Counted from the stretch's first letter, positions 1,798 to 60,671 are shown. The stretch: DNA of 64,000 nucleotides from Vicinamibacteria bacterium (GCA_023701125.1 JAMPXO010000011.1:1218-65217), one strand, 5' to 3'. The notes: generated from the letters alone by a model not told the origin. Program-made: numbers and translations.

Positions 1798-1968
1798 TCA
1801 GATCCGCCCGAGCAGCCAGCCGGAGACGATCGCGCCCACCACCATCGCCACGAACACCTTGAGCCCGAACGCCTGCTGCTCGCGCGGATCGTCGCGCAGC
1901 AGCAGCGCGAACACGAACGACACCAGCGCCGAGAACACGACCAGCGACAGCAGGTGGCTGGCGATCAC
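1798..1968 (-). CDS. small membrane protein (~56 aa, GTG start overlapping upstream stop as GTGA)
   Basis: alternate frame downstream of the 1965..2345 ORF encodes VIASHLLSLVVFSALVSFVFALLLRDDPREQQAFGLKVFVAMVVGAIVSGWLLGRI*; two hydrophobic helices; stop 13 nt upstream of leuB RBS. Confidence 0.4.
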   Translation of the reverse strand: MIASHLLSLVVFSALVSFVFALLLRDDPREQQAFGLKVFVAMVVGAIVSGWLLGRI

Positions 1969-2345
1969 GCCCGGCGCCCGCGCGCCGTGTCCCAGGCGTC
2001 GAGGATGACCAGGACGTTCAACAGCCCGGCCACCTCGGTGAACGTGTTGCCGTAATCGTACCCGGGGTCCATCGGCAGCCCCATCGGGTCGGCCAGCCAG
2101 CGCGCGAGGCCGTAGGGCAGGCCGATCGCCACCTGGGCCGCGCAGCGCAGCAGCCCCAGCGGGTCCTCGAGCCCGCCCGGCGGCAACAGCCGGGCGTGCA
2201 TCGCGACGCCGAGGCCGAACAGCAGCCCGAGCGCCATCAAGAAGCGGAGGCCGCGGCCGGGGCGGCCGGCATACACGTGCCCCGCACCGGGCACCAGGCA
2301 GCCCAGCAAACAGGCGATGAGCGGCGATCGCGAGCGCGCTTCCAA
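1965..2345 (-). CDS. hypothetical membrane protein
   Basis: 126 aa ORF with hydrophobic segments (LIACLLGCLVPGAGHVYAG..., GLLFGLGVAM...), same strand and tightly following the PilT-like gene. Confidence 0.45.
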   Translation of the reverse strand: MEARSRSPLIACLLGCLVPGAGHVYAGRPGRGLRFLMALGLLFGLGVAMHARLLPPGGLEDPLGLLRCAAQVAIGLPYGLARWLADPMGLPMDPGYDYGNTFTEVAGLLNVLVILDAWDTARGRRA

Positions 2346-2412
2346 GGGGCGGCGATGCTACGGGCCCGGGCGAACCCAGGTCAAGGCGCGCGCCAGTCCT
2401 CCGAACAGGCCT

Positions 2413-4485
2413 TCAGAACAGGCGCTTGAGCTCGACCGTGACCGAGCGCCGCTTGCCCTGGCGCTCGACCGTGAACGAGTACTTGCCGTCCGTGCGCAGC
2501 ATCTGGCGCACCTCCTCGAGCGGCATGCCCTTCACCGCCTTGCCGCCCGCCTCGAGGATGTACTCCCCGCGCACGAGGCCGGCCAGCGCCCCGGGCGAGT
2601 CGGGGGCCACGTTCATGATGCGGATGCGCTCGAACGTCGGCGGGTCCTCGGCCAGGGTGATGCCGCTGCGGAAGCGACGACCGAACTCGACCTTGTCGAC
2701 GGCCTTGTTCAGCGCCTCGGGCATCTCCACCAGCTTGCGGTCTTCGACCAGGTCCTGCAGCTCGTCGTTGAGACTCTGCATGCCGACCGCGCGACCGGCC
2801 TGCATCACGCTGGAGAGCTGCACGGTCTTGGCCTCGCGGATCAGCGCGGCCGCCGCGTAGTTGACGACCAGGATCTCGAGCGCCGCGACCCGTCCGCCGC
2901 CCTTCTTCTTGCACAGGGTCTGGGCGACGACGCCCTTCAGCACGTCGGCCAGCACGCTGCGCACCTGGTTCTGCTGGTCCGCCGGGAACTGGTCGATCAC
3001 GCGGTCGATCGCGCTCATCGCCGAGTTGGTGTGCAGCGTGCCGAACACCAGGTGGCCGGTGTTGGCGGTCTCCAGCGCCAGCGCGATCGTCTCCGGGTCG
3101 CGCATCTCGCCGACCAGCACGATGTCCGGGTCCTCGCGCAGGCAGGCCTTCAGCGCCCGCGAGAAGCTGGTCGTGTGGCCGCCGACCTCGCGCTGGTTGA
3201 CGAGGCACTTCTGGCTGGTGTGCACGAACTCGATCGGGTCCTCGAGCGTGATGATGTGGCCCGCGCGCAGCTTGTTGATGTAGTCGACCATCGCCGCCAG
3301 CGTCGTCGACTTGCCGCTGCCGGTCGTGCCGGTGACCAGCACCAGGCCCTTGGGCAGCTCGCACATGTCCTTGATCACCTTCGGCAGGCGGAGCTGCTCG
3401 AGGGTCAGGATCTTCGACGGGATCAGCCGCAGCACCGCGCCGATGCCGTGGTGGTCGCGGAACATGTTGACGCGGAAGCGCGCCACCTCGGGCAGCGCGT
3501 AGGCGAAGTCGACGTCGTTGTCGGCGGCGAACTGCTCGCGGTGCCGCGGCTCCATCACCGGGGCGAGCAGCTCCAGCGTCTCCTCGACGCCGAGCGGCGT
3601 CGTCTCCGGGATGATGCTGATCTCGCCGTCGATGCGCCAGCGCGGCGCGACGCCGGCCGAGAGGTGCACGTCGGAAGCGCCTTCCGCCACCATCCGCTTG
3701 AGCAGCGCGTCGAGGCGCGGCGAGCTGGGCGCCGGGCCCGCCACCACCGCCGCCGGCGCGCCGGCCTTCCAGCCGGGCACCCCGGCCCCGGCGCGCAGCG
3801 CCTCGCCGAAGGCCTGGGCGTCGATCTGCACGGGCACCAGCTCGAAGCTGGGCAGCGCCGCGCGGATCGCGTTCATCAACTGCGCCGTCGGCTCGTCGAC
3901 CAGGCCGATCGTCAGCCGCGCGCCCTCCACCCGCAACGGCAGCGCGCGGTGGCGCTGCATCAGGTCGAGCGGCAGCAGCGCGAGGGCCTCCGGCGTCGGG
4001 CCGCCCTGGCTGGCGAGATCCCACTCCTGCAGCGCGATCCGGCCCGAGACCTTCGACAAGCGCGTCGCCAGGCCCTGGGCGAGGCCGATCCCGAACTCCG
4101 GGATCTTCTGGAACATGGCCTCGAACGACTTGACCGAGAAGCGCAGCACGAGCGCGTCGCTCGTGGCCGCGACCGTGGCTGTGCGCGGCTCGCGCAGCAG
4201 CAGGCCCATCTCGCCGAGGCTGCTGGGCGCCTCGACGCTGCCCAGCTCGGCCTGGTCGCCGGCCTTGTCGACGGTGATCGCCGCGCGGCCCTCGACCAGC
4301 AGGAAGAAGGCGTCGGAGGCCTCACCCTGGCGGATGATCGGCTCGTCCGCAGAGTAGCTGCGCAACTCGGAGAGCTTGACGACCTGAGGCAGGTGCTCCG
4401 GCTTGAGCGCGCGGAACAGCGGACAGCCAGCCAGCGCCGCGGTGATCTTGCCCTGCATCTCGTCCTGGATGGGCAGCACTTCCAT
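2413..4485 (-). CDS. multidomain PilT-type ATPase: N-terminal cNMP-binding (CAP-like) domain, GspE_N domain, PilT/GspE secretion ATPase core, C-terminal PDZ
   Basis: Start MEVLPIQ at 4485, preceded by aagga RBS. The 819-aa ORF-track version has an Arg-rich, non-protein-like extension. cNMP domain: FRALKPEHL...RQGEASDAFFLLVEGRAAI...LGEMGLL...RTATVAA. Walker A GTTGSGKSTT. PilT motifs GHTTSFSRALKACLREDPDIVLVGEMRD and TGHLVFGTLHT. C-terminal PDZ-like ...IMNVAPDSPGALAGLVRGEYILEAGGKAV. Confidence 0.8.
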   Translation of the reverse strand: MEVLPIQDEMQGKITAALAGCPLFRALKPEHLPQVVKLSELRSYSADEPIIRQGEASDAFFLLVEGRAAITVDKAGDQAELGSVEAPSSLGEMGLLLREPRTATVAATSDALVLRFSVKSFEAMFQKIPEFGIGLAQGLATRLSKVSGRIALQEWDLASQGGPTPEALALLPLDLMQRHRALPLRVEGARLTIGLVDEPTAQLMNAIRAALPSFELVPVQIDAQAFGEALRAGAGVPGWKAGAPAAVVAGPAPSSPRLDALLKRMVAEGASDVHLSAGVAPRWRIDGEISIIPETTPLGVEETLELLAPVMEPRHREQFAADNDVDFAYALPEVARFRVNMFRDHHGIGAVLRLIPSKILTLEQLRLPKVIKDMCELPKGLVLVTGTTGSGKSTTLAAMVDYINKLRAGHIITLEDPIEFVHTSQKCLVNQREVGGHTTSFSRALKACLREDPDIVLVGEMRDPETIALALETANTGHLVFGTLHTNSAMSAIDRVIDQFPADQQNQVRSVLADVLKGVVAQTLCKKKGGGRVAALEILVVNYAAAALIREAKTVQLSSVMQAGRAVGMQSLNDELQDLVEDRKLVEMPEALNKAVDKVEFGRRFRSGITLAEDPPTFERIRIMNVAPDSPGALAGLVRGEYILEAGGKAVKGMPLEEVRQMLRTDGKYSFTVERQGKRRSVTVELKRLF

Positions 4486-4566
4486 GGGAGTCCTTTCGTC
4501 GAGCGAATCACGCCGCGGCTCGCAGGCGGGCAAGGTAACACGCTTCCAAACGGTCGCCCCAGCGCT

Positions 4567-4628: not shown

Positions 4629-6488
4629 ATGAACCAGGGTGTTGAACGGGGGGCGCGCCGGCTGGCCGCGCTCGCTCTCGCGGTCGCTGTCGCCGTTGGC
4701 GCCGGTGGCGCTGCGGCCGACGACCTCGCCTTCTTCCCGCTCGAAGACGTCCGACCCGGACAGAAGGGGGTCGGCCGCACGGTGTTCGCGGGCACGCAGA
4801 TCGTCGACTTCGAGGTCGAGGTGATCGGCGTGCTCGAGAACTTCGGGCCGAAGCAGAGCATGGTGCTCGCAAGGCTGACCGGCGGCCCGCTGGCCGAGAC
4901 GGGCGTGATCGCCGGCATGAGCGGCAGCCCCGTCTACATCGACGGCAAGCTGCTCGGCGCCGTGGCCTACGGCTTCCCTTTCAGCAAGCAGACGATCGCG
5001 GGCATCACGCCGATCGGCGAGATGCTGGAGGCCGCCAAGGCCGCGCCCGCCGCGCCGCGCGCCGCGTCGACCCGCTTCCCCGCCGCGGCCTTCGGCCCCG
5101 ACGCCTTCGCGCTGCCGCTGTCCCGCGCGACGCTCGTGGCCCCGTTCGTCCACCCGGAGCGCCTGTTGTCCTCCGCACCGCGGCTTCCGCTCGGCACCGG
5201 CGCGGGGCCGGCGATGGCACCCCTGCAGCTTCCGCTCGCCTTCGGCGGCTTCGAGCGCGGCGCGTTCGAGGCGGCTCGTGGCCTGTTCGAAGGCCTCGGC
5301 TTCGCGCCGGTGTTTGCGCCCGCGCGCAAGGGCGTACCGCCGGGGCCGATGCCCGACCTGGCGCCGGGCGGCGCCGTCGGCGTGTCGTTGATCGAGGGCG
5401 ACTTCGACCTGTCGGCGACCGGCACCATCACCCACATCGCCGACGGTCGCGTGTACGCCTTCGGCCACCCGTTCTACAACCTGGGGCCGATCCGCTTCCC
5501 GATGAAGAAGGCGTACGTGTTCGACGTCTTCCCGAGCCTGTACCAGTCGTGGAAGATCTCGTCGACCGCGAGCGAGGCCGTCGGCACCATCGACCAGGAC
5601 CGGGCGACGGCGATCGCGGGGGCCCTGGGCCCGGCGCCGCGCATGATCCCGCTGACCATCAACCTGAAGACGAGCCGCGGCGACCAGCGCACCTTCGAGT
5701 TGCGGGTCGTCGAGGACGAGCTGTTCACGCCGGTGCTGGCCTACCTGTCGGTGTTCTCGGTGCTGCAGGCCAACGAGCGCGCGTACGGGACGCAGACGGT
5801 GCGTATCGAGTCGCGGCTGGCGCTCGAGGGCCGGCCCGAGGTGCGGGTGGAGGACCTGCTGACCGAGAGCAACCCCTCGCTGCTGGCGTCCGGGCTGGCG
5901 GCCGCGCCGCTCGCCTACCTGATGGCCAACAGCCTCGAGCCGGTGAAGGTGACCAGCCTGAGCGTGACCGCCGAGTCCTTCGAGGACGAGCGCTCGGCCC
6001 GGCTCGAGCGGGTCTGGGTGGAGTCGCCGGGGCCGCTGCGGCCCGGCACCACGGTCGCGGTCAAGGCCGCCCTGCGCGGCTTCCGTGGCGAACTGACCGT
6101 GGAGTCGGTGCCTTTCCGCATCCCCGACACCGCGCCGGCCGGGAACTACAACCTGCTGGTGGCGGACGGCGACACGATGACGGTGTTCGAGCAGCGCGAG
6201 CTGCGCCAGCGCTACGAGCCGCGCAACCTCGACCAGTTGATCCGCGCGATCAACGGCCTGCGTCGCTCGGATCGACTGTACTTCCGCCTGGTCCGTGCCG
6301 AGGACGGTGCCGTCGTCGGCGGCGAGTGGCTGCCGTCGCTGCCGCCCTCGATGCTGACCGTGCTCGGCGCCAGCCAGGGCGGCGAGCCGCTGATCCGCAC
6401 CCGCACCGCCTCCGCGTGGGACTTCGAGCTGCCGCTGCAGGTCGCCGTGCGCGGCAGCCGCAGCCTGCCCTTCGTCGTCGAGCGCTAG
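4629..6488 (+). CDS. secreted peptidase S55 (SpoIVB-like serine peptidase)
   Basis: signal peptide RRLAALALAVAVAVGAGGAAA; GMSGSPVYIDGKLLGAVAYGF motif typical of SpoIVB/S55 catalytic Ser region; RBS gaaaga. Confidence 0.7.
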   Translation: MNQGVERGARRLAALALAVAVAVGAGGAAADDLAFFPLEDVRPGQKGVGRTVFAGTQIVDFEVEVIGVLENFGPKQSMVLARLTGGPLAETGVIAGMSGSPVYIDGKLLGAVAYGFPFSKQTIAGITPIGEMLEAAKAAPAAPRAASTRFPAAAFGPDAFALPLSRATLVAPFVHPERLLSSAPRLPLGTGAGPAMAPLQLPLAFGGFERGAFEAARGLFEGLGFAPVFAPARKGVPPGPMPDLAPGGAVGVSLIEGDFDLSATGTITHIADGRVYAFGHPFYNLGPIRFPMKKAYVFDVFPSLYQSWKISSTASEAVGTIDQDRATAIAGALGPAPRMIPLTINLKTSRGDQRTFELRVVEDELFTPVLAYLSVFSVLQANERAYGTQTVRIESRLALEGRPEVRVEDLLTESNPSLLASGLAAAPLAYLMANSLEPVKVTSLSVTAESFEDERSARLERVWVESPGPLRPGTTVAVKAALRGFRGELTVESVPFRIPDTAPAGNYNLLVADGDTMTVFEQRELRQRYEPRNLDQLIRAINGLRRSDRLYFRLVRAEDGAVVGGEWLPSLPPSMLTVLGASQGGEPLIRTRTASAWDFELPLQVAVRGSRSLPFVVER

Positions 6489-6519
6489 AAGACACCAGAC
6501 GCCAATGCAAGGAGCCCGC

Positions 6520-8724
6520 ATGAACGCGCCGCGAGCCGCGCTCGCCCTCGTCCTCGCCGCCAGCCCCGCCTTCGCCGTGCAGCCGCAGCTCCACCGCTTC
6601 GAGGGCGCGTCCGACTTCCTGGCGGGCGAGCTCGAGAACCTCGCCGTCGATTCCCTCGGCCGACTGCGGCTCGCCGGCCGGACGACCCTCGCCCACGACC
6701 CGGGCACGCCCTACGCGTGGTCCGTCGCGCGCGACGGCAAGGGCACCGTGTACCTGGGCACGGGCAACGAGGGCAAGGTGCTCGCGATCGGCCCGGACGG
6801 CACGGCGAAGGAGCTGTTCGACGCGCCCGAGCTGGAGGTACACGCGCTGGCGCTGGGGCCCGACGACCGGCTCTACGCGGCCACCTCGCCGGACGGCAAG
6901 GTCTATGCGATCGACCGCAAGGGGGGCAAGGCCCTGACCTTCTACGACCCGGCGGACAAGTACATCTGGGGCCTGGCGTTCGACGGCCAGGGCCAGCTCT
7001 ACGTGGCGACCGGCGCCGAGGCCAAGCTGCACCGCGTGAACGCGAAGGGCGAAGGCGTGATCGTGCTGACCACGGCCGAGACCCACTTCACGGCCCTCGC
7101 CGTCGACAAGCGAGGTCACGCCTTCGTGGGCTCAGCGCCCGGCGGCATCGTCTACGAGGTCGACCCGAAGGGCGTCGGCCGGGTCGTCGCCGACACGGGC
7201 TACAAGGAGGTCAAGGCGCTGGTGCCGACCGCGACCGGCGCCGTCTACGCCGCGGTGGTCGACGGCCGCGACGCGGCCAGCGACCGCACGCGGCCGGTCA
7301 CTCCCCCGCCGGCTCCCGCCGCGACGCCGTCGCCGGCGCCCGCGGGCGAGACCCTGGCGCAGCCGCCCGGCTTCGAGGGCGTGGCCGTGGTCGTGACCGC
7401 TTCTGCTGCCGCGCCGGCTCCGCCCCGCGGGCCGCAGAAAGGCGCCGTGCTGCGCCTCGCACCCGAGGGCGACGTGGACGTGCTGTGGACCTCCATCGAG
7501 GAGACCCCGCTGGCGCTGGCGCCCTCCGAGCGGGGCGTGACGTTCGGGACGGGCGCCGCCCGCGGCAAGGTCTACGAGGTGCGGGACGACCGCACCTGGA
7601 CGCTGCTCGCTTCGTTCGCCGCGCAACAGGTCACAGGCCTGGCGGGCGCGCCGGGCGGCGGTTTGCTGGCGGCGGTCTCGAACCCGGGCCAGGCGTGGCG
7701 AATCGAAGCCGCGCCGGCCGCCAGCGGCAGCTTCACGAGCAAGGTCAAGGACACCGAGACGCCGTCGACGTGGGGCCAGGTCTCGTGGACCGCGACGCTG
7801 CCGCGCGAGACCCGGGTCGAGGTGCAGACCCGCACCGGCAACACCGGCACGCCGGACTCGACGTGGTCCGCCTGGTCGGAGGCGCTGACCGCGGCGACGG
7901 GCGCTGCCGTGAAGAGCCCGCGCGGCCGCTTCGTCCAGGTCCGCGTCGTGCTGCACGGCGCGGGTGCGACCACGCCCGTGCTCGACGGCCTGCAACTCGC
8001 CTACCTGCAGCGCAACCTGCGGCCCGCCGTCAGCGCCGTGACCGCGCATCCACCGGGCGAGGTGTTCGGGCGCCCGATGATGGTGAGCAACGAGACCGAG
8101 GTGCTGGGCCTCGTGCCCGGCACCGGGCCCGACCTGCGCCGGCCCGGCACCCGGCCGCCCACGCTCAACCTGGGCATGTCCCGCCGGCTCTACGTCCGCG
8201 GCCTGCAGGCCTTCACCTGGCGCGCCGAGGACGCGAACGGCGACGAACTGCGCTACGACCTCCACTACCGCGCCGTCGGCGACGAGCGCTATCGGCCCAT
8301 CCAGCGCGGCCTCGACGACGCCGTGTTCACGTGGGACACGTCCACGGTCCCGAACGGCCGCTACGTGTTGCGGGTGACCGCGTCCGACGCGGCGGCCAAC
8401 CCCGCGGAGCTGGCCCAGTCGGGCGAGCGCGAGAGCGTCGCCTTCGACGTCGACAACACGCCGCCGACGGTCAGCGCCCGGCTCGAGGGCCGCTTCGTCA
8501 AGGCCCGCGCCGCGGACGCCGACACGGCGATCCGCAAGGTCGAGTGGGCGCTCGACGGCTCGCCCTGGCAGGAGGTCCACCCCGAGGACGGCCTGAGCGA
8601 CTCCGCGGACGAGGCCTTCTCGCTGCCGGTGCCCGCGGGCGAAGGCGCGGGGCCGCACGTGCTCGTGCTGCGGGCCACGGATCGGCTCGGCAACGTGGGC
8701 ACGGCGCGGGTCGAGATCCCCTGA
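6520..8724 (+). CDS. secreted beta-propeller repeat protein with C-terminal beta-sandwich domains
   Basis: signal peptide MNAPRAALALVLAASPAFA (aaggag RBS before second ATG); repeated ...G.VY.GTG..G.../PDG.LY repeats; Pro/Ala/Thr linker. Confidence 0.65.
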   Translation: MNAPRAALALVLAASPAFAVQPQLHRFEGASDFLAGELENLAVDSLGRLRLAGRTTLAHDPGTPYAWSVARDGKGTVYLGTGNEGKVLAIGPDGTAKELFDAPELEVHALALGPDDRLYAATSPDGKVYAIDRKGGKALTFYDPADKYIWGLAFDGQGQLYVATGAEAKLHRVNAKGEGVIVLTTAETHFTALAVDKRGHAFVGSAPGGIVYEVDPKGVGRVVADTGYKEVKALVPTATGAVYAAVVDGRDAASDRTRPVTPPPAPAATPSPAPAGETLAQPPGFEGVAVVVTASAAAPAPPRGPQKGAVLRLAPEGDVDVLWTSIEETPLALAPSERGVTFGTGAARGKVYEVRDDRTWTLLASFAAQQVTGLAGAPGGGLLAAVSNPGQAWRIEAAPAASGSFTSKVKDTETPSTWGQVSWTATLPRETRVEVQTRTGNTGTPDSTWSAWSEALTAATGAAVKSPRGRFVQVRVVLHGAGATTPVLDGLQLAYLQRNLRPAVSAVTAHPPGEVFGRPMMVSNETEVLGLVPGTGPDLRRPGTRPPTLNLGMSRRLYVRGLQAFTWRAEDANGDELRYDLHYRAVGDERYRPIQRGLDDAVFTWDTSTVPNGRYVLRVTASDAAANPAELAQSGERESVAFDVDNTPPTVSARLEGRFVKARAADADTAIRKVEWALDGSPWQEVHPEDGLSDSADEAFSLPVPAGEGAGPHVLVLRATDRLGNVGTARVEIP

Positions 8725-35408: not shown

Positions 35409-36380
35409 CTAGCCCATCGCCTGGGCGGCGGTGACCGTCGCGACATCGGCGAGGTCCTGGGCCGAGCAGCCGCGCGACACGTCGTTCACCGGCCGCCGCA
35501 GCCCCTGCAGGATCGGGCCGATCGCGGTCGCCCCGGCCAGTCGTTCGCTGATCTTGTAGGCGATGTTGCCGGCGTTCAGGTCCGGGAACACGAAGACGTT
35601 GGCCTTTCCGGCCAGCGGGCTGTCTGCGCACTTCTTCGCCGCGACGCCGGGCACGAACGCGGCGTCGAACTGCAGCTCGCCGTCGACCAGCAGCTCCGGG
35701 TGCGCGGCCCGACACGCCGCGGCCGCCTCGCGCACGCGGTCGACGCTCTCGTGCTCGGCGCTGGCCCGGGTCGAGAACGACAGGAACGCGACCCGCGGCT
35801 CGTGGCCGAAGGCGCGCGCGGTCGCGGCGGTGGCTGCCCCGATCTGGGCCAGCAGCGCGGCGTCCGGCGCGATGTTGACGGAGCAGTCCGCGTAGAAGAG
35901 CACGCGCTCGGGCCACTCCATCACGAACACCGACGACACCCGCTGGTAGCCGGCGGCCAGCTTGACGATCTCGAACGCCGGGATGAACGGCTTGCAGGCG
36001 CTGGTCAGGCCCGAGACGAACCCGTCCGCATCCCCGGCCTCCACGAGCAGCGCGGCGAAGTAGTTGGGCTTCGCCGTCACCTCATGAGCCTGCTCGAGGG
36101 TCATGCCCTTGTGCTTCCGCAACTCCTGGTAGCGCGCCGCGAGCCGGGCCCGGTCCGGGTCCTGGGCCGGGTCGCGGACGATCACGCCTTCCAGCGAGAC
36201 ACCGGCGGCCTGCGCCACCGCTGCGACCTGGTCCCGCGGCCCCAGCAGCACCGGCTGGCACAAGCCCTGGCCGGCCACGGTGGCCGCCGCCCGCACCGCC
36301 CGCTCTTCGGTGCCCTCGGCGAGCACCACCCGCATCCCCTTGCCGCGCACCCGCTGTCGAACGTCGTCCATGAAGCCCAT
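35409..36380 (-). CDS. pta: phosphate acetyltransferase (short-form Pta; phosphate butyryltransferase not excluded)
   Basis: 323 aa; strong similarity to Bacillus-type Pta: ...VFADCSVNIAPD..., FSTRASAE, GELQFDAAFVPGVAAKK, GPILQGL..PVNDLSRGC. Confidence 0.8.
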   Translation of the reverse strand: MGFMDDVRQRVRGKGMRVVLAEGTEERAVRAAATVAGQGLCQPVLLGPRDQVAAVAQAAGVSLEGVIVRDPAQDPDRARLAARYQELRKHKGMTLEQAHEVTAKPNYFAALLVEAGDADGFVSGLTSACKPFIPAFEIVKLAAGYQRVSSVFVMEWPERVLFYADCSVNIAPDAALLAQIGAATAATARAFGHEPRVAFLSFSTRASAEHESVDRVREAAAACRAAHPELLVDGELQFDAAFVPGVAAKKCADSPLAGKANVFVFPDLNAGNIAYKISERLAGATAIGPILQGLRRPVNDVSRGCSAQDLADVATVTAAQAMG

Positions 36381-36417
36381 CGTGTCTTCTCCTGGTTGCT
36401 ATACTCCGCGCGCTGCG

Positions 36418-37353
36418 ATGTTCCTCCTCGGCCAGACCGTCGGCAAGTATCAGATCCTTGCCAACCTCGGCTCCGGGGGCTTCGGGACCGTGTTCCTCGC
36501 CCGCGACACCTGGATCGACAAGAAGTTCGCGATCAAGGTCCCCCACCGCCAGTCGGGCGACGCCGACGACCTGCTGCAGGAGCCGCGGCTGCTGGCCGCG
36601 CTCGACCACCAGAACATCGTCGGCATCGTCACCGCCGAGAAGGTCGACGGCGTCTTCTTCATCGTCATGGAGTACGTCAAGGGCGAGAGCCTCGAGGGCG
36701 CCCTCGACCGCGAGAAGTCGTTCGACGTGCCCCGCGCGCTCAACTACACGGTGCAGGCGCTGAAGGGCGTCGAGCACGCCCACGGCGCCAACATCCTGCA
36801 CCGCGACCTGCGCCCCGCCAACGTGCTGGTGTCGGAGAGCGGCGTCGTCAAGGTCGCCGACTTCGGCACCTCGCGGCTGATGGACAAGATGCACGCGACG
36901 ACCGTCATCGGCAGCCCGCCGTACATGGCGCCCGAGCAGTTCGCCGGCCGCGCCGTGCTGGCCTCGGACATCTACTCGGTCGGCGTCATGCTGTATCAGA
37001 TGCTGACCGGGACGCTGCCCTACTTCAGCCCCAACCCGGCCCAGATCGAGCGCATGGTCGCGCAGGGCCGCTGCACCCCGCCGCGACTGCGCAACCAGCA
37101 GATCCCGCGCGAGATCTCGGACATCGTGATGAAGGCGATGGCGCCCGAGCTGGCCGACCGCTACCAGAAGGCCTCCGAGCTGCTCGAGGACCTGGCGACC
37201 GCGACCGACATCGACCACAAGGCGACCGAGCTGGAGGACATCCGCAAGCGCCTGAAGGCCCGCGAGACCCCCAAGAGCGGCTTCTGCTGGCACTGCCGCA
37301 AGCCGCTTCACGCCCGGTCCCGCTCCTGTCCCTTCTGCGGCGAGGCACAGTAG
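36418..37353 (+). CDS. serine/threonine protein kinase with C-terminal zinc-ribbon
   Basis: GxGxxG LGSGGFGTV, VAIK-like FAIKV, HRDLRPANVLV, DFGTS, APE; C-terminal CWHCRKPLHARSRSCPFCG. Confidence 0.8.
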   Translation: MFLLGQTVGKYQILANLGSGGFGTVFLARDTWIDKKFAIKVPHRQSGDADDLLQEPRLLAALDHQNIVGIVTAEKVDGVFFIVMEYVKGESLEGALDREKSFDVPRALNYTVQALKGVEHAHGANILHRDLRPANVLVSESGVVKVADFGTSRLMDKMHATTVIGSPPYMAPEQFAGRAVLASDIYSVGVMLYQMLTGTLPYFSPNPAQIERMVAQGRCTPPRLRNQQIPREISDIVMKAMAPELADRYQKASELLEDLATATDIDHKATELEDIRKRLKARETPKSGFCWHCRKPLHARSRSCPFCGEAQ

Positions 37354-37511: not shown

Positions 37512-38642
37512 ATGCACATCAACGATCTCCTGAAGATCGCGTCGGAGCGGAAGGGCTCGGACCTTCACCTGAAGGTCGGCTCGCACCCCGTGGTGCGCAT
37601 CAACGGCGAGCTGATCCCGCTCGTCGAGACCAAGCGGCTCATGCAGGAAGACACCATCGCCATGGCGTTCTCCATCATGAGCAACCGCCAGAAGCAGAAG
37701 TTCAAGGAGAACCTCGAGATCGACATCGCGTACTCGGTGCCGGGTCTCGGCCGCTTCCGCTGCAACGTGTTCCAGCAGCGCGGCACCGTCGGCCTCGTGC
37801 TGCGCGTGATCCCGGTCAAGATCCTGACGGTCAAGGAACTGGGCCTGCCGGTGGTGCTGGAGAAGATCGCCGGCGAGCAGCGCGGGATGGTGCTCTGCAC
37901 CGGGACCACGGGCTCGGGCAAGTCGACCACGCTGGCCGCGATCATCGACTACATCAACACCCAGCGCTGCGAGCACATCATCACGATCGAGGACCCGATC
38001 GAGTTCCTCCATCGCGACAAGAAGTCGATCGTCAACCAGCGCGAGATCGAGGTCGACACCAAGAGTTTCGCGGCGGCGCTGCGCTCTGCCCTGCGCCAGG
38101 ACCCCGACGTGATCCTGGTCGGCGAGATGCGCGACTACGAGACGATCGAGACCGCGATCACGGCGGCCGAGACCGGCCACCTCGTGTTCTCGACCCTGCA
38201 CACGCTGGACGCGACGGAGACCGTCAACCGCATCATCTCGGTCTTCCCGCCGCACCAGCAGAAGCAGATCCGCCTCCAGCTCGCCGGCGTGCTCAAGGCC
38301 GTCATCTCGATGCGGCTGATCCCGCGCGCCGACAACAACGGCCGTGTGCCGGCGACCGAGGTGATGATCACGACGCCGTTCATCCGCGACTGCATCATCA
38401 ACAAGGACAAGACCAAGCTGATCCACGAGGCGATCGCGGCCGGCGTCTCGCAGTACGGGATGCAGACCTTCGACCAGGCGGTGTTCTACCTGTACAAGAA
38501 GGAGCTGATCACCTACGACGAGGCGATGCGCCGCTGCTCGAACCCCGACGAGTTCAAGATGCGGGTGCAGGGCGTGCAGTCGACCTCCGACATGGCCGCC
38601 GAGGAGATGGAGAAGTCCATCGAATCGTTCGAGATGGAATGA
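37512..38642 (+). CDS. pilT: type IV pilus retraction ATPase PilT
   Basis: ggag RBS; MHINDLLKIASERKGSDLHL, Walker A GTTGSGKSTT, ...VNQREIEVDTKSFAAALRSALRQDPDVILVGEMRD..., C-terminal AIAAG motif region. Confidence 0.9.
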   Translation: MHINDLLKIASERKGSDLHLKVGSHPVVRINGELIPLVETKRLMQEDTIAMAFSIMSNRQKQKFKENLEIDIAYSVPGLGRFRCNVFQQRGTVGLVLRVIPVKILTVKELGLPVVLEKIAGEQRGMVLCTGTTGSGKSTTLAAIIDYINTQRCEHIITIEDPIEFLHRDKKSIVNQREIEVDTKSFAAALRSALRQDPDVILVGEMRDYETIETAITAAETGHLVFSTLHTLDATETVNRIISVFPPHQQKQIRLQLAGVLKAVISMRLIPRADNNGRVPATEVMITTPFIRDCIINKDKTKLIHEAIAAGVSQYGMQTFDQAVFYLYKKELITYDEAMRRCSNPDEFKMRVQGVQSTSDMAAEEMEKSIESFEME

Positions 38643-39160: not shown

Positions 39161-39181
39161 AAGGAGCAGAAGAGTCCTACC

Positions 39182-41857
39182 GTGAAGACCGCCGACCAGA
39201 TCCGCCACGCCTTCCTGCGCTACTTCGAGGAGCGCGGCCACCGCGTCGTCAAGAGCAGCTCGCTCGTCCCCGAGAGCGACCCCACGCTGCTGTTCGCCAA
39301 CGCGGGCATGAACCAGTTCAAGGACCTCTTCCTCGGCCGCGAGAAGCGCGACTACGCCCGCGCCGCCTCGTCGCAGAAGTGCGTCCGCGCCGGCGGCAAG
39401 CACAACGACCTCGAGAACGTGGGCCAGACCGCGCGCCACCACACCTTCTTCGAGATGCTCGGCAACTTCTCGTTCGGCGACTACTTCAAGAAGGACGCGA
39501 TCGCCTTCGGCTGGGAGTTCCTGACCAGGGACCTCGGCCTCGACCCGTCGCGGATGAAGGTCACGATCTTCCGCGGCGAGGACGGCGTGCCGCGCGACAG
39601 CGAGGCCCACGGCTTCTGGCTGGAGCACGTCGCCGCCGACCGCATCCTGGAGCTCTCGGCCAAGGACAACTTCTGGGCGATGGGCGACACCGGCCCCTGC
39701 GGTCCCTGCTCCGAGATCCACTTCCACCAGGGCGACGACCTGCCCTGCGCCGACGAGGCGGCCGGAGGGAAGTGCAAGGGCGTCGAGTGCGAGTGCGACC
39801 GCTGGCTGGAGATCTGGAACCTGGTCTTCATGCAGTTCGACCGCGATTCCGCCGGCAAGCTGACGCCGCTGCCGGCGCCGTGCGTCGACACCGGCATGGG
39901 CCTCGAGCGCGTCAGCGCCGTCGCCCAGGGCCACCGCTCGAACTACGACACCGACCTGTTCACCCCGCTGTTCGCCGCGATCTCGAAGCTGTGCGGCAAG
40001 CCGTACGGGGCGACGACCTCCGCCGACGACATGTCGATGCGGGTGATCGCCGACCACATGCGGGCGACGACGTTCCTGGTCGGCGACGGCGTGATCCCCG
40101 GCAACGAGGGACGCGGCTACGTGCTGCGCAAGATCATGCGTCGCGCGCTGCGCCACGGCCGCCGGCTCGGCATCGAAGGCGCCGTGCTGGTGCCGCTGAT
40201 CGACGCGGTGGTCGAGCGCATGGCGGGCGCCTACCCGGAGCTGCACAACCAGAAGGACTCGATCCGCAAGATCGTCGAGGTCGAGGAGGACCGCTTCTCG
40301 ACCACCCTGCGCCAGGCGTTCGTGATGTTCGACCAGGCGGCGGCGAAGCTGAAGGCGGGCGACGTGCTGCCCGGCGCCGAGGCCTTCCGCCTGTACGACA
40401 CCTACGGCCTGGCCCTCGACTTCACCGAGGAGCTGGCGAAGGACCGCGGCCTCACGGTCGACAACGCCGGCTTCGACCGCGAGTTGCAGGCCCAGCAGGA
40501 ACGCGCCCGCAGCGCCAGCAAGCTGGGCGCGGTCACCGGCGACCCGGTCTACATGGAGCTGCTGCACAAGCAGAAGCCGCAGTTCGTCGGCTACGACACG
40601 CTGGCCCTCGACGAGGCGCGGGTGCTGGCCGTGGTCCGCGGCGGCGCCTCCGTGAGCCGGCTCGACGTGGGCGAGGAGGGCGAGATCATCCTCGACCGCA
40701 CGCCGTTCTACGGGGAGTCGGGCGGCCAGGTCGGCGACCGCGGCGTGATCGCCGCCGAGGGCGCGGCGGCGGACGTCACGGACTGCCGGCTGCCGGTGCC
40801 CGGGCTTTACTCCCACCACGTCAAGGTCACGGCGGGCGGCTTCGAGCCGGGCATGGTCGTGCGCTGCGAGGTCGACCCCGCCCACCGCGCGGGCGCCATG
40901 CGCCACCACAGCGCGACCCACCTGCTCCACGCCGCGCTGCGCGAGATCCTCGGCCCCCACGTCAAGCAGGCGGGCTCCATGGTCGCGCCCGACCGGCTGC
41001 GCTTCGACTTCAGCCACTACGCGGGGGTCACGCCGCGCGAGCTGCGCCACCTCGAGAACCGGGTCAACGGCGAGATCCTGCGCAACACGGGCCTGGAGAC
41101 GAAGGTGATGGGCCGCGAGGAGGCGCTCTCCTACGGCGCCCTGGCCTTCTTCGGCGACAAGTACGGCGAGCGCGTGCGGGTGGTCGAGGTGCCGGGCTTC
41201 TCGAAGGAGTTCTGCGGCGGCACCCACGTCCACCGCACGGGCGACATCGGCCTGTTCCTGTTCAGCTTCGAGCAGGGCATCTCGGCCGGCACCCGCCGCG
41301 TCGAGGCGCTCGCGGGCGACGCCGCGATGGCCCGCGCCCAGGCCGACCAGGGCATCCTCGAAGAGCTCGAGCAGGCCGCCAAGACGGATCGCCGCGCGCT
41401 GGTCGACGAGTACGCGAAGTTGCGCGACCAGTTGAAGACCAGGGAGCGCGAGGTCCAGGCGCTGAAGATGAAGCTGGCTACCGGTGGCGGCGGCGCCAGC
41501 GACGACGAAAAGGCCGAGCACGCCGGCGTCCGGCTGCTCACGCCCCGCTACGACGGCCTCGACAAGAAGTCGCACGCGGCCGTGGTCGACGACCTGCGCA
41601 ACCGCCACAAGGCGGCGCCGTTCCTGATCGTCTCCGCGGCCGTCGCGGAGGACGGCGTGCACGTGATCGCCGCCGTGTCGGAGTCGCTCCAGGGCCGGGT
41701 GAAGGCGCCCGAGCTGATGAAGCGGCTGGGGCTGCGCGGCGGAGGTCGGCCCGACTTCGCGCAGGGCGGCGGCGTGGCCGCAGACGACGTGGACGCGATG
41801 AGGAAGAAGGCGGGAGAGCTGATGCGCGAGATGCTGGAGGGTGTCGGTGCAGCCTGA
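39182..41857 (+). CDS. alaS: alanine--tRNA ligase
   Basis: GTG start; 891 aa; FANAGMNQFKD, class II motifs, editing HxxxH...CGGTH, C-terminal DHHA1-like region. Confidence 0.95.
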   Translation: MKTADQIRHAFLRYFEERGHRVVKSSSLVPESDPTLLFANAGMNQFKDLFLGREKRDYARAASSQKCVRAGGKHNDLENVGQTARHHTFFEMLGNFSFGDYFKKDAIAFGWEFLTRDLGLDPSRMKVTIFRGEDGVPRDSEAHGFWLEHVAADRILELSAKDNFWAMGDTGPCGPCSEIHFHQGDDLPCADEAAGGKCKGVECECDRWLEIWNLVFMQFDRDSAGKLTPLPAPCVDTGMGLERVSAVAQGHRSNYDTDLFTPLFAAISKLCGKPYGATTSADDMSMRVIADHMRATTFLVGDGVIPGNEGRGYVLRKIMRRALRHGRRLGIEGAVLVPLIDAVVERMAGAYPELHNQKDSIRKIVEVEEDRFSTTLRQAFVMFDQAAAKLKAGDVLPGAEAFRLYDTYGLALDFTEELAKDRGLTVDNAGFDRELQAQQERARSASKLGAVTGDPVYMELLHKQKPQFVGYDTLALDEARVLAVVRGGASVSRLDVGEEGEIILDRTPFYGESGGQVGDRGVIAAEGAAADVTDCRLPVPGLYSHHVKVTAGGFEPGMVVRCEVDPAHRAGAMRHHSATHLLHAALREILGPHVKQAGSMVAPDRLRFDFSHYAGVTPRELRHLENRVNGEILRNTGLETKVMGREEALSYGALAFFGDKYGERVRVVEVPGFSKEFCGGTHVHRTGDIGLFLFSFEQGISAGTRRVEALAGDAAMARAQADQGILEELEQAAKTDRRALVDEYAKLRDQLKTREREVQALKMKLATGGGGASDDEKAEHAGVRLLTPRYDGLDKKSHAAVVDDLRNRHKAAPFLIVSAAVAEDGVHVIAAVSESLQGRVKAPELMKRLGLRGGGRPDFAQGGGVAADDVDAMRKKAGELMREMLEGVGAA

Positions 41858-58263: not shown

Positions 58264-60534
58264 ATGACCCGCCCCACTTCCGCCCCCGACGTGCCCCTGC
58301 TCGCGGCAGCTCTCGCCGAGGAGCGCAGCCTGCTCCTGGAGGCCGAGGTCTACGCCTTGCTCGCCTCGGCCGGCCTGGCGGTGCCGCGCCACCACGAGGT
58401 CCAGGCGGACTCCGACATCGACCGCGGCCTGTGCGAGGCACTCGGCACCGAGCAGGTGGTGCTGAAGGTCGTGTCGCCGGACCTGATGCACAAGAGCGAC
58501 GTGGGCGGCGTCGTGGTCTGCGAGAACACGCCGTCGGCGCTGCGCGAGGCCCGCTCCCGGATTCTCGCGGCCGTCTCCCGGGCTCGGCCGGAGGCCCGCA
58601 TCCGTGGTCTGCTGGCCTGCGAGAAGGTGGCCCACGCGGGCGGCCCCGGCCGCGAGCTGCTGGCCGGCTTCCGCCACGACCCGGCTTTCGGCCCGGTGGT
58701 CGTCCTCGGCGTCGGCGGTCTCGACGCCGAGGCGTTGATGAAGGCGCTGCTGCCCGAGCAGGCGCGCGCCGTGTTCCATGCCGAGGGCCTGGCCCGCGAC
58801 GTGGTGGCCGCCCGCCTGCGCCAGACCCTGTTCCACGGCTTCCTCACCGGCCGCATGCGCAGCGCGCGCGAGGGCGACAGCGTCGGCGAGGAGGCGCTGG
58901 TCGACCTGGTGATGGCACTCGGCTCGCTCGCCCGCCGCTACGCCTCGCTCGCACCCGACGCCGGTGTCGGCCTGGCCGAACTCGAGATCAACCCCGTCGT
59001 GCTCGCGCGGGACGGGCGACTGGTGGCGCTCGACGGCCTGGCCCGCGTGCACCACCCGCAGCCGTGCGCGCCGCCGCGGCCGCAGGAGGCGCTGGCCCGC
59101 CTGCTGCGCCCGCAGAGCGCCGTCGTGATCGGCGCCTCCGCCGAGGGCAGCAACGTCGGCCGCACCATCCTCCGCAACCTGCTCGCGGGCGGCGGCGTGC
59201 CGAAGGACAAGCTGTGGGCGATCCACCCGCGGGCGAAGGAGATCGACGGCTGCGCCGCGTTCGCCGATGCCAGCGCCTTGCCCGAGCGGCCGGATCTCGC
59301 GGTGGTCGCGCTGCCCGCGGACCGCGGCGCCGGCGAGGTCACGCTCGACCTCGTCTCCAAGGCTCGCGCCCGCTCGGTGACGTTGATCTCCGGCGGCTTC
59401 GCCGAGACCGAGGCCGGCCGCGGCATCGAGGCCGCCTTGCGCGCGGCCATCGAGCGCTCGCGCACGGACGCGGACGGCGGCGTCGTGGTCAACGGCGGCA
59501 ACTGTCTCGGCATCATCTCTGAGCCGGGGCGCTACAACACGTTCTTCATCCCCCGCTACAAGCTGCCCTTCCCCGACGCCCCGGTCCGCCACGTCGCCGC
59601 GATCAGCCAGTCCGGCGCCTACCTCGTGACGCTGATCTCCAACCTCGAGCGCGCGGTGCGACCGCGCTACGCCATCTCCTTCGGCAACCAGGTCGACCTC
59701 AGCGTCGCCGACTACCTCGAGCACCTGGCCGCGGACCCCGAGGTGCGCGTGTTCGCCGCCTACGTCGAGGGCTTCCGCCGCGGCGACGGCCTGCGCTTCC
59801 TCGACATCGCGCGCCGGCTGGAGGCCGAGGGCCGCACGGTGCTCCTCTACAAGGCCGGGCGCAGCGCCGAGGGCAGTGCCGCCGCCGCCTCCCACACGGC
59901 CGCCGCCGTGGGCGACTACGCCGTCAGCCGTGAGCTGTGCCGCGCCGCCGGCGTGATCGACTGCAACACCCTCAACATGTTCGAGGACTACCTGCTGACC
60001 TTCGCCTTCCTCGAGGGCCGGCAGGTGACGGGCCCGCGGGTGGCGATCCTCTCCAACGCGGGCTTCGAGTGCACGGCGGCCGCCGACCGCCTCTACGGCC
60101 TGGAGATCGCGAGCCTCGCGCCGGCGACGCTCGCGCGGCTGACGGCGCTGCTGCCCAAGGGCGTGATCGACGCCCACAACCCCGTCGACGCGACGCCGGT
60201 GACGCCCACCGATCGTTACGCCGCGCTGTTCGAAGCACTGCTCGCGGACGACGCCGTGGACGCCGTGGTGGTCGGCGGCGTGCCGGCGACGCCAGCCCTC
60301 GACGACCTGCCGGCGGGCCTCGGCCACGGCGAGGACATCCTGGGCGAGGACAGTCTGCCGCAGCGGCTGATCCGCATCTTCCGCGAGTCGCGCAAGCCGA
60401 TCGTGTTCTCGGTCGACGCGGGGCCGCTCTACGACCCATTCGCGCTCGCGATGCTGCGGGCGGGCCTGCCGACGTTCCGCAAGATCGACCGCGCCACCCG
60501 CGCGCTGGCGGCCTTCACCGGCGTTTTCCGCTAG
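58264..60534 (+). CDS. ADP-forming acetate--CoA ligase family protein (fused ATP-grasp + CoA-binding/ligase-CoA domains)
   Basis: 756 aa; ATP-grasp-like N-term (VVLKVVSPDLMHKSDVGGVVV), CoA-binding SAVVIGASAEGSNVGRTILRNL..., ligase-CoA region. Confidence 0.7.
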   Translation: MTRPTSAPDVPLLAAALAEERSLLLEAEVYALLASAGLAVPRHHEVQADSDIDRGLCEALGTEQVVLKVVSPDLMHKSDVGGVVVCENTPSALREARSRILAAVSRARPEARIRGLLACEKVAHAGGPGRELLAGFRHDPAFGPVVVLGVGGLDAEALMKALLPEQARAVFHAEGLARDVVAARLRQTLFHGFLTGRMRSAREGDSVGEEALVDLVMALGSLARRYASLAPDAGVGLAELEINPVVLARDGRLVALDGLARVHHPQPCAPPRPQEALARLLRPQSAVVIGASAEGSNVGRTILRNLLAGGGVPKDKLWAIHPRAKEIDGCAAFADASALPERPDLAVVALPADRGAGEVTLDLVSKARARSVTLISGGFAETEAGRGIEAALRAAIERSRTDADGGVVVNGGNCLGIISEPGRYNTFFIPRYKLPFPDAPVRHVAAISQSGAYLVTLISNLERAVRPRYAISFGNQVDLSVADYLEHLAADPEVRVFAAYVEGFRRGDGLRFLDIARRLEAEGRTVLLYKAGRSAEGSAAAASHTAAAVGDYAVSRELCRAAGVIDCNTLNMFEDYLLTFAFLEGRQVTGPRVAILSNAGFECTAAADRLYGLEIASLAPATLARLTALLPKGVIDAHNPVDATPVTPTDRYAALFEALLADDAVDAVVVGGVPATPALDDLPAGLGHGEDILGEDSLPQRLIRIFRESRKPIVFSVDAGPLYDPFALAMLRAGLPTFRKIDRATRALAAFTGVFR

Positions 60535-60671
60535 CCACGCCGCCGGACCACTCGACGCGGCGCACGGGTTCCAGCGCCGGGCGGGGCCCGTCGCCGGTCC
60601 CATGGGGGCGCCGTCGGCCTCTGGTCAAAGACCCCCGAAAGGTCCACAATCGCCTCGACACGGGAGCGGCG

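Follow-up and report, generated by a model that had tools for sequence, protein, structure and literature searches.

We analysed a 64,000-nucleotide stretch of DNA from a Vicinamibacteria bacterium (GCA_023701125.1, JAMPXO010000011.1:1218-65217; the window, with a G+C content of about 72%) and focused on one of its genes, located on the minus strand at positions 2413..4485, stop codon included. As identified from the open reading frame (ORF), its translation and searches with Pfam and NCBIfam profiles, this gene encodes a protein of 690 amino acids (aa) in which a cyclic-nucleotide-binding (CNB) domain, an N1-like domain, a PilT-type ATPase core and a PDZ domain follow one another from the N-terminus. 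Such a four-region protein had been described in an initial annotation; the Pfam domain annotation it called for recovered cNMP_binding, MshEN, T2SSE and PDZ_6, all above their gathering cut-offs, and the peptide strings it quoted were all found in the translation. The four-domain observation is real and far beyond chance. From the sequence we infer, rather than demonstrate, that the fused protein is probably a PilT-type retraction motor regulated by a cyclic nucleoside monophosphate (cNMP).

The ORF is uninterrupted from the ATG (4485-4483) to the stop codon (2413-2415) and represents a single gene. A Shine-Dalgarno-like sequence, GAAAGGA, was read directly from the DNA at 4491..4497 (-) and precedes the ATG by 6 nt, and all 72 aligned homologues share M1; for these reasons the ATG at 4485 was taken as the start. 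A longer form beginning at a TTG at 4872 was set aside because it overlaps the divergent gene 4629..6488. Residue conservation is given below for the 72 homologues, and an alignment of 72 homologues was also used for an AlphaFold2 (AF2) model of the full protein. The mean predicted local distance difference test (pLDDT) score of this model is 85.4, and its only low-confidence stretches are two inter-domain linkers, 148-150 and 239-249.

A PilT-type core and its accessory domains

The ATPase core comprises the N- and C-terminal domains of the PilT family (residues ~255-600; 2686..3723, minus strand) and was delimited with TIGR01420 and the structure 3jvu. Pfam T2SSE matches residues 252-566 with 157.9 bits (cut-off 24.9), and the NCBIfam model of the PilT/PilU family, TIGR01420, matches residues 258-598 with 454.1 bits against a cut-off of 319.1, a score that tops those of the sister families GspE, PilB, DotB and TraJ. 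The GspE and PilB equivalogs were both failed by the fused protein (141 bits for a cut-off of 630 and 140 bits for a cut-off of 676, respectively). When the core was compared with solved structures, P. aeruginosa PilT 3jvu was the best match (358 bits), followed by the Aquifex, Geobacter and Thermus PilTs and then by PilU (265 bits); the structures of GspE and PilB scored only ~100-117 bits. Foldseek superposed the core on 3jvu_A with a target-normalised template modelling (TM) score of 0.95 and a root-mean-square deviation of 1.6 Å over 341 columns, at 52% identity, and the fold is that of PilT, with a PAS-like N-terminal and a RecA-like C-terminal domain.

The motifs of the core were read from the sequence: Walker A is GTTGSGKST (residues 386-394; 3304..3330, minus strand), Walker B with the catalytic Glu is DIVLVGEMRD (residues 454-463; 3097..3126, minus strand), the His box is TGHLVFGTLHT (residues 476-486; 3028..3060, minus strand) and the Asp box is EDPIEF. 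Invariant residues include G386, T388, G389, G391, K392 and S393 in Walker A, G459, E460, R462 and D463 in Walker B and those of the His box, and the patterns of the Asp box, Walker B and the His box were each found in all 137 four-domain homologues of the database census presented below. AIRNLIRE is the PilT-type C-terminal motif. At this place the window protein carries AAAALIREAK and the family consensus is AVANLIRExK; A544, R550, E551 and K553 are invariant, the first positions being those that vary. The CxxC pairs of the GspE/PilB zinc site are absent from the sequence, in which the only cysteines are C21, C375, C426, C447 and C524. The core is a full PilT in which all catalytic motifs are intact, and each sequence or structure criterion tested places the fused protein in the PilT/PilU family and with neither GspE nor PilB. 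The PilT/PilU-like core named in the initial annotation was confirmed in this more precise form.

The CNB domain occupies residues ~10-147, including a C-terminal helix at 131-147 (4045..4458, minus strand), and was assigned with Pfam cNMP_binding (PF00027), which matches residues 42-127 with 65.5 bits for a cut-off of 27.5. In the AF2 model, it forms a beta-barrel with helices. Its phosphate-binding cassette, GEMGLLLREPRTATV (residues 91-105; 4171..4215, minus strand), was located by conservation and by an alignment with PKA RII-alpha, in which it matches the segment FGELALMYNTPRAATIIA residue for residue. Within the signature G91-E92...R101-T102-A103, G91, E92 and R101 never vary, and T102 and A103 are kept in at least 90% of the homologues. 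A search for G-E...R-[TSA]-A matched 135 of the 137 four-domain proteins, 72 of 98 related proteins with three domains and none of 174 plain PilTs. The closest solved relatives are the CNB-A domains of PKA RII-alpha and RII-beta (72-76 bits), followed by PKG, MloK1, SthK and CRP, the scores to the CNB domains of all these proteins ranging from 40 to 76 bits. The cassette also agrees with the consensus given for ligand-binding bacterial CNB families by Kannan et al. 2007 (PMC2246266). The CAP-family domain proposed at the N-terminus is thus supported both by the profile score and by an intact cassette, which is predicted to be of the type that binds cyclic AMP (cAMP) or cyclic GMP (cGMP). As a Thr after the cassette Arg is found in cAMP- and cGMP-preferring domains alike, sequence does not assign the ligand to one of the two.

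The N1-like domain (residues ~155-235; 3781..4023, minus strand) corresponds to the alpha/beta half of the MshEN/GSPII module. It is recognised by Pfam MshEN (PF05157, formerly T2SSE_N) at residues 163-231 with 33.7 bits (cut-off 23.1), in a match that spans only profile positions 13-81 of 90. A separate AF2 model of residues 150-240, with a pLDDT of 93, consists of short helices and then a beta-beta-alpha-beta-alpha unit. Its best Foldseek matches in the PDB were X. citri PilB-N (with PilZ), V. cholerae MshE-N (with cyclic di-GMP, c-di-GMP), Thermus PilF GSPII, XpsE-N and GspE N1E (with GspL), each of which is the N-terminal module of an ATPase for extension or secretion. Sequence identity to these matches is 11-26%, and TM scores of ~0.75 normalised to the query and ~0.5 normalised to the target indicate that only about half of each target is covered. 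The match was placed by phmmer in the C-terminal part of the targets, at 68-120 of 146 residues in 6ejf_G and at 90-135 of 173 in 7lkm. The full two-subdomain MshEN fold, with a helical and an alpha/beta part, was not found in the fused protein, where the alpha/beta half stands alone.

The c-di-GMP motif of MshE is a tandem 24-residue sequence, RLGxx(L/V/I)(L/V/I)xxG(L/V/I)(L/V/I)xxxxLxxxLxxQ. Regular expressions for its strict and loose forms found no match in the window protein, and the strict form found none in 120 homologues. Sensing of c-di-GMP via MshEN was rejected because these motifs are absent and because only the C-terminal half of the module is matched. The region is the alpha/beta "docking" half of MshEN and not a c-di-GMP receptor, and the CNB domain takes the position of the missing helical, c-di-GMP-binding half. 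The type II secretion E N-terminal-like domain of the initial annotation is therefore retained as a PF05157 match, but reduced to this half and deprived of the c-di-GMP motifs. The linker that joins the N1-like domain to the core is variable except for a conserved G-V-x-G-W motif (residues 235-239; ~3769-3783, minus strand); this motif was found in 105 of 137 four-domain proteins, 21 of 98 three-domain proteins and 5 of 174 plain PilTs, and may be a docking element.

The protein ends with a PDZ domain (residues ~603-688; 2422..2679, minus strand), assigned with PF17820 and the carboxylate-binding loop. PDZ_6 (PF17820) matches residues 623-668 with 35.5 bits (cut-off 27), and PF00595 (22.4 bits) and PDZ_2 (21.6 bits) fall just under their cut-offs. 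All sequence matches of this region in the PDB are PDZ domains (consensus PDZ, syntenin-1, DegP and CtpA), and the AF2 model shows the strands and helices typical of the fold. In the carboxylate-binding loop, R604-F-R-S-G608-I-T-L, residues R604, R606 and G608 are invariant, and the pattern [R/K]-x-x-x-G-hydrophobic-x-hydrophobic was found in 135 of the 137 four-domain homologues. This PDZ domain is canonical and its carboxylate-binding loop is intact, in agreement with the C-terminal PDZ originally proposed. It starts right after the last PilT helix (598-603), without a long linker, and its last strand ends 2-4 residues before the C-terminus, where the terminal residues are not conserved. Binding of the protein's own C-terminus is unlikely given this short and unconserved end, and an external partner is therefore expected.

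A second PilT is encoded in the window, as the initial annotation had also stated: the gene at 37512..38642 (+) encodes a plain PilT of 376 aa (TIGR01420, 480 bits) that is closest to Geobacter PilT4 and 43% identical to the fused core. The presence of two PilTs in the window implies that the organism has at least two PilT paralogues, of which the fused one would be an extra, specialised copy. The plain gene is an orphan, lying between genes for a Ser/Thr protein kinase and an alanyl-tRNA synthetase (flanks 36133-37353 (+) and 39161-41857 (+)), and other pil genes were not found nearby. Orphan pilT genes are common.

Distribution and history of the fusion

A full-length search retrieved more than 120 clusters (at 90% identity) that are 56-66% identical to the window protein over ~100% of its length and carry the same four Pfam domains. 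More than 130 full-length homologues from NCBI, JGI, ENA and Logan have the same domain order and lengths of 683-717 aa, and residues at the domain junctions are conserved in their alignment. In the databases, at least 137 proteins have all four domains and at least 98 three-domain proteins were retrieved; the domain hidden Markov models built for this analysis count 142 four-domain and 98 three-domain proteins among all sequences retrieved, loci included. The labelled four-domain sources are all Vicinamibacteria or other metagenome-assembled genomes (MAGs) of Acidobacteriota; with the high G+C content of the window, this distribution points to the class Vicinamibacteria for the window as well. 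Family members are annotated merely as PilT or PilT/PilU.

The wider family emerged when 1.84 billion cluster representatives were scanned exhaustively. The PDZ-less form, of ~590-650 aa, covers residues 1-605 of the query and corresponds to CNB-N1-PilT, as confirmed with Pfam in six proteins. A profile search assigned labelled three-domain members to Desulfobacterales, Archangium (Myxococcota) and Kiritimatiellae and revealed one variant with an extra PAS domain; a cluster look-up added one three-domain member in a MAG of Gammaproteobacteria. The architecture, initially called unusual, is so only with respect to characterised proteins, as the sequence databases hold a sizeable conserved family from several phyla.

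Two other searches were of narrower scope. With residues 1-240 alone as query, 23 matches were obtained, mostly fragments or CNB-only proteins, and the known family was missed; this search was not used for the census. A contig scan with a single protein yielded two or three loci with the full architecture (L001, L002 and L003) and ~77 plain PilTs, and does not amount to a taxonomic census. Some ORFs on long contigs (proteins P0121, P0124, P0126, P0127 and P0129, and locus L003) have only the CNB domain, only CNB and N1 or only PilT and PDZ; they could be genuine split genes or frameshift errors of long-read assemblies.

A neighbour-joining tree without bootstrap was computed from 165 PilT cores sampled from the best matches to the fused query. 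In this tree, 70 of 71 fused cores fall into one clade, apart from 70 plain PilTs, and a few CNB-PilT variants join the clade of the fused cores. The four-domain proteins form a clade that branches from within a series of three-domain grades. The CNB-N1-PilT fusion appears to have arisen once and to have spread across phyla, and the simplest history appears to be a single fusion event with the PDZ domain gained later in the Vicinamibacteria lineage. Three sequences, P0158, P0164 and P0175, are tandem PilT-PilT fusions of 741-1024 aa, P0158 having in addition an N-terminal PatA_N/DUF4388 domain; most tandem cores group outside the plain and the fused clades.

Gene neighbourhoods

Downstream of the fused gene and in the same orientation, the window encodes a DUF6677 membrane protein of 126 aa (1965..2345, minus strand) and a hydrophobic ORF of 56 aa (1798..1968, minus strand) that overlaps the DUF6677 gene by 4 nt; a gene of the isocitrate/isopropylmalate dehydrogenase family (Iso_dh, 729-1784) lies 14 nt past the 56-aa ORF. 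On the other side, a divergent gene (4629..6488, plus strand) encodes a 619-aa protein with a signal-peptide-like N-terminus and a partial match of ~75 residues to Peptidase_S55 (29.7 bits). It is followed, 17 nt past the S55-like gene, by the gene for a protein of 739 aa (6505-8724, plus strand) that weakly matches beta-propeller profiles (Reg_prop, SGL), and the pair resembles an operon. Homologues of Iso_dh, the 56-aa ORF, DUF6677, the S55 peptidase and the 739-aa propeller protein were not detected by tblastn in six homologous loci, and a functional link of the fused gene to these neighbours was rejected on this ground. The small membrane proteins and the S55 peptidase pointed out at first are thus present, but they are not conserved beside homologues and are probably incidental. 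In the 67-nt gap between the stop codon of the fused gene and DUF6677, a sigma-70-like site was observed (TTGACC-18-TAGCAT, 2355-2384, minus strand; 0 of 50 shuffles), a hint that the small membrane genes downstream are transcribed from a promoter of their own; the fused gene may accordingly be monocistronic.

Cyclase and PilB-like genes were not found in the 64-kb window. A second cyclic-nucleotide-binding protein is encoded at 59934-62867 (+), where a SulP-STAS transporter carries a C-terminal cNMP_binding domain (78.8 bits); by its domain content, this genome would use cNMP signalling elsewhere too.

We surveyed 13 contexts of family members, the window and twelve others, one of which came without DNA. 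In six of the 13, the neighbours include a cyclase, a GAF-HD protein, another cNMP-binding protein or a PilB-like ATPase fused to GAF. In L083, a HisKA-REC-cyclase is encoded upstream of the fusion and a cNMP-binding protein downstream; in L081 and L086 the neighbour is a TPR-cNMP_binding protein, and in L002 a GAF-HD protein is encoded ~1 kb downstream. In L088 (4479-13046), the gene for a PilB-like ATPase with a GAF-MshEN-T2SSE organization is followed by the fusion and then by genes for a PAS-class III cyclase and a GAF-HD protein, and in L089 (5564-7927) a GAF-MshEN-T2SSE gene is immediately upstream of the fusion. These two GAF-MshEN-T2SSE proteins, of 787-788 aa, have an N-terminal GAF sensor and their genes precede three-domain CNB-N1-PilT genes; the L088 arrangement may represent a motor pair controlled by second messengers. 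Linkage to cNMP-signalling genes is recurrent but not universal. Unannotated genes beside three-domain members in L087 (273 aa) and L088 (351 aa) gave no tblastn match in the other loci.

Among the contexts counted as unrelated, L001 was checked by tblastn with a few query proteins only, and L084 has a divergent PatA_N gene (5847-7793, minus strand) that is pilus-related rather than cNMP-related. A PatA_N (PATAN) protein is also encoded near the four-domain family member of L083 (15391-16599, plus strand). In cyanobacteria, the PatA_N (PATAN) domain family is associated with the regulation of motility that depends on type IV pili.

A second-messenger-controlled motor: proposal and alternatives

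In the mechanism that we propose, the fused protein would be a cytoplasmic hexameric ATPase of the PilT family, of the type that serves as retraction motor of type IVa pili, and the three accessory modules would put this motor under the direct control of a second messenger and of a partner. Binding of cAMP or cGMP to the CNB domain would reposition the C-terminal helix 131-147, tethered to the N1-like domain by a short flexible linker (148-156). The movement of the helix would then alter the activity of the ATPase or hexamer, or the docking of the N1-like domain on a platform or adaptor protein, a step for which GspE N1E with GspL and PilB-N with PilZ provide precedents. Retraction would be switched post-translationally by a cyclic mononucleotide, as c-di-GMP does for MshE and PilB, and the rim of the hexamer would carry six PDZ domains that bind a partner protein by its C-terminal tail and so tether the motor or set its location.

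A more specific version of this proposal is possible but must be considered tentative and less likely than not. In it, the cNMP would act directly on the motor and the CNB domain would have replaced the c-di-GMP half of MshEN, the whole having been grafted onto PilT; the GAF-PilB-like partners and the adjacent cyclases and phosphodiesterases, as in L088, would form a switch between extension and retraction at the level of the ATPases; and the PDZ domain added in Vicinamibacteria would fasten the motor to a protein of the pilus platform or of cell polarity by the C-terminal tail of that protein.

Several observations weigh against a cNMP-regulated retraction motor. Some concern the ligand: the R-T-A/R-S-A variation of the cassette does not decide between cAMP and cGMP, and CNB-fold domains of other families bind ligands besides these two (PMC2246266). 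Others concern the context, as pil, cyclase and phosphodiesterase genes do not adjoin the fused gene in the window and seven of the 13 contexts, the window included, show an unrelated neighbourhood. The N1-type domain is otherwise found on extension ATPases, and the direction of retraction is assumed from the similarity of the core only. Finally, the AF2 model has a predicted TM score of 0.59, which makes the mutual arrangement of the domains uncertain, and the tree lacks bootstrap values, is biased towards the query in its sampling and leaves one three-domain sequence outside the clade.

We consider it unlikely, although worth weighing, that the fused protein is not a dedicated motor of type IVa retraction and that it serves another filament-like machine, acts as an extension or bifunctional motor, or works with plain PilT as a poisoning or regulatory subunit, being recruited through its N1 domain of the extension-ATPase type. 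Domains of this N1/MshEN type otherwise belong to PilB, MshE, PilF and GspE, the position of the L088 and L089 genes after a GAF-MshEN-T2SSE ATPase suggests a dedicated motor pair, and no pil genes adjoin the fused gene of the window, where a plain PilT most similar to the housekeeping PilT4 of Geobacter is encoded as well; PilT paralogues of auxiliary or unclear role are also known in M. xanthus and G. sulfurreducens (PMC13584747, PMC5065972). The core itself argues the other way: it is 52% identical to P. aeruginosa PilT and superposes on it at 1.6 Å, it passes the PilT/PilU threshold and fails those of GspE and PilB (141 and 140 bits for 630 and 676), it keeps the A..NLIRE-like PilT motif and it lacks the CxxC pairs of the GspE/PilB zinc site. 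It seems to us quite improbable that the CNB-fold domain has a different ligand, or no ligand at all, and serves as a constitutive module for oligomerisation or autoinhibition. Its cassette Gly, Glu and Arg are invariant in the four-domain clade and the Thr/Ser-Ala nearly so, the best solved relatives (PKA RII, PKG, MloK1 and SthK) are genuine cAMP/cGMP receptors, and several loci encode class III cyclases, GAF-HD proteins and further CNB proteins next to a family member. These points have to be set against the recruitment of the CNB/CRP-FNR fold for many ligands (PMC2246266), the failure to find a cyclase in the 64-kb window and the fact that about a quarter of the three-domain relatives, some of which are fragments, fail the strict cassette pattern.

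The idea that the four-domain ORF is an artefact, adjacent genes having been merged by a frameshift or in a chimeric contig, could draw on the long contigs on which P0121, P0124, P0129 and L003 carry only CNB and N1 or only PilT and PDZ. It is effectively refuted by the uninterrupted ORF of the window, by the more than 130 independent full-length homologues of 683-717 aa with the same domain order, by the conservation of the junction residues and by the confidence with which AF2 models each domain.

A cNMP-regulated PilT-type motor would have relatives among several known systems. With PilT (P. aeruginosa 3JVU/3JVV; Geobacter PilT4, 6OJX), the fused core shares the two-domain fold, Walker A, the Asp box, Walker B, the His box and the AIRNLIRE-like motif. 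Characterised PilTs are stand-alone proteins of ~345 aa, whereas the fused protein adds 250 N-terminal residues (CNB and N1-like domains) and 90 C-terminal ones (PDZ) and, unlike them, is a paralogue beside the plain PilT of the same window. The closest functional analogy is the control of MshE, PilB and Thermus PilF by c-di-GMP (5HTL, 7LKO, 8PDK), which follows the same logic of an N-terminal second-messenger sensor on a type IV filament ATPase. The class of messenger, the fold of the sensor and the type of motor differ: these three are c-di-GMP-regulated extension ATPases, whereas the fused protein is of the PilT type and has a CNB domain in place of c-di-GMP motifs. With GspE N1E-GspL (2BH1, 4PHT) and X. 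citri PilB-N-PilZ (7LKO), the N1-like domain shares the alpha/beta docking fold at 11-26% identity, and it may dock in the same manner. With PKA RII, PKG, MloK1, SthK and CRP, the CNB domain shares the beta-barrel and the G-E...R-T-A cassette. The output domains of these proteins are kinases, channels or DNA-binding domains, whereas the output of the fused protein would be an ATPase of the secretion superfamily, which is not among the families of the 2007 CNB census (PMC2246266).

The three-domain CNB-N1-PilT proteins (for example P0307, P0309, P0320 and P0166) are 37-56% identical to the window protein and belong to the same core clade; they lack the PDZ domain and end at about residue 605, where the PDZ loop begins. 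Some of their genes are clustered, as in an operon, with those for a GAF-PilB-like ATPase, a cyclase and a GAF-HD protein. The studies of PilT paralogues in M. xanthus and G. sulfurreducens (PMC13584747, PMC5065972) mention neither a CNB domain nor cAMP or any other cyclic nucleotide for these paralogues. The initial annotation had allowed that the architecture might prove to be both common and already characterised; it is common, but searches of the full-text literature found no description of a cNMP-PilT fusion. The family is abundant in databases and not categorically new.

To our knowledge, cAMP is known to control pilus dynamics only by way of transcription, with CRP/Vfr-type regulators as an example, and we know of direct control of pilus ATPases by a second messenger only for c-di-GMP acting on the extension motors MshE, PilB and PilF. 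If our proposal is correct, a retraction motor with a built-in receptor for cAMP or cGMP would be a new point of regulation. The exchange of a c-di-GMP subdomain for a CNB domain ahead of a shared N1-like adaptor would be a natural, modular replacement of one sensor by another, and could inform the design of motors that respond to a ligand. The family has many members in soil Acidobacteriota (Vicinamibacteria) and is present in several other phyla as well, and it may constitute a common and overlooked coupling of surface behaviour to cyclic-nucleotide signals in environmental bacteria.

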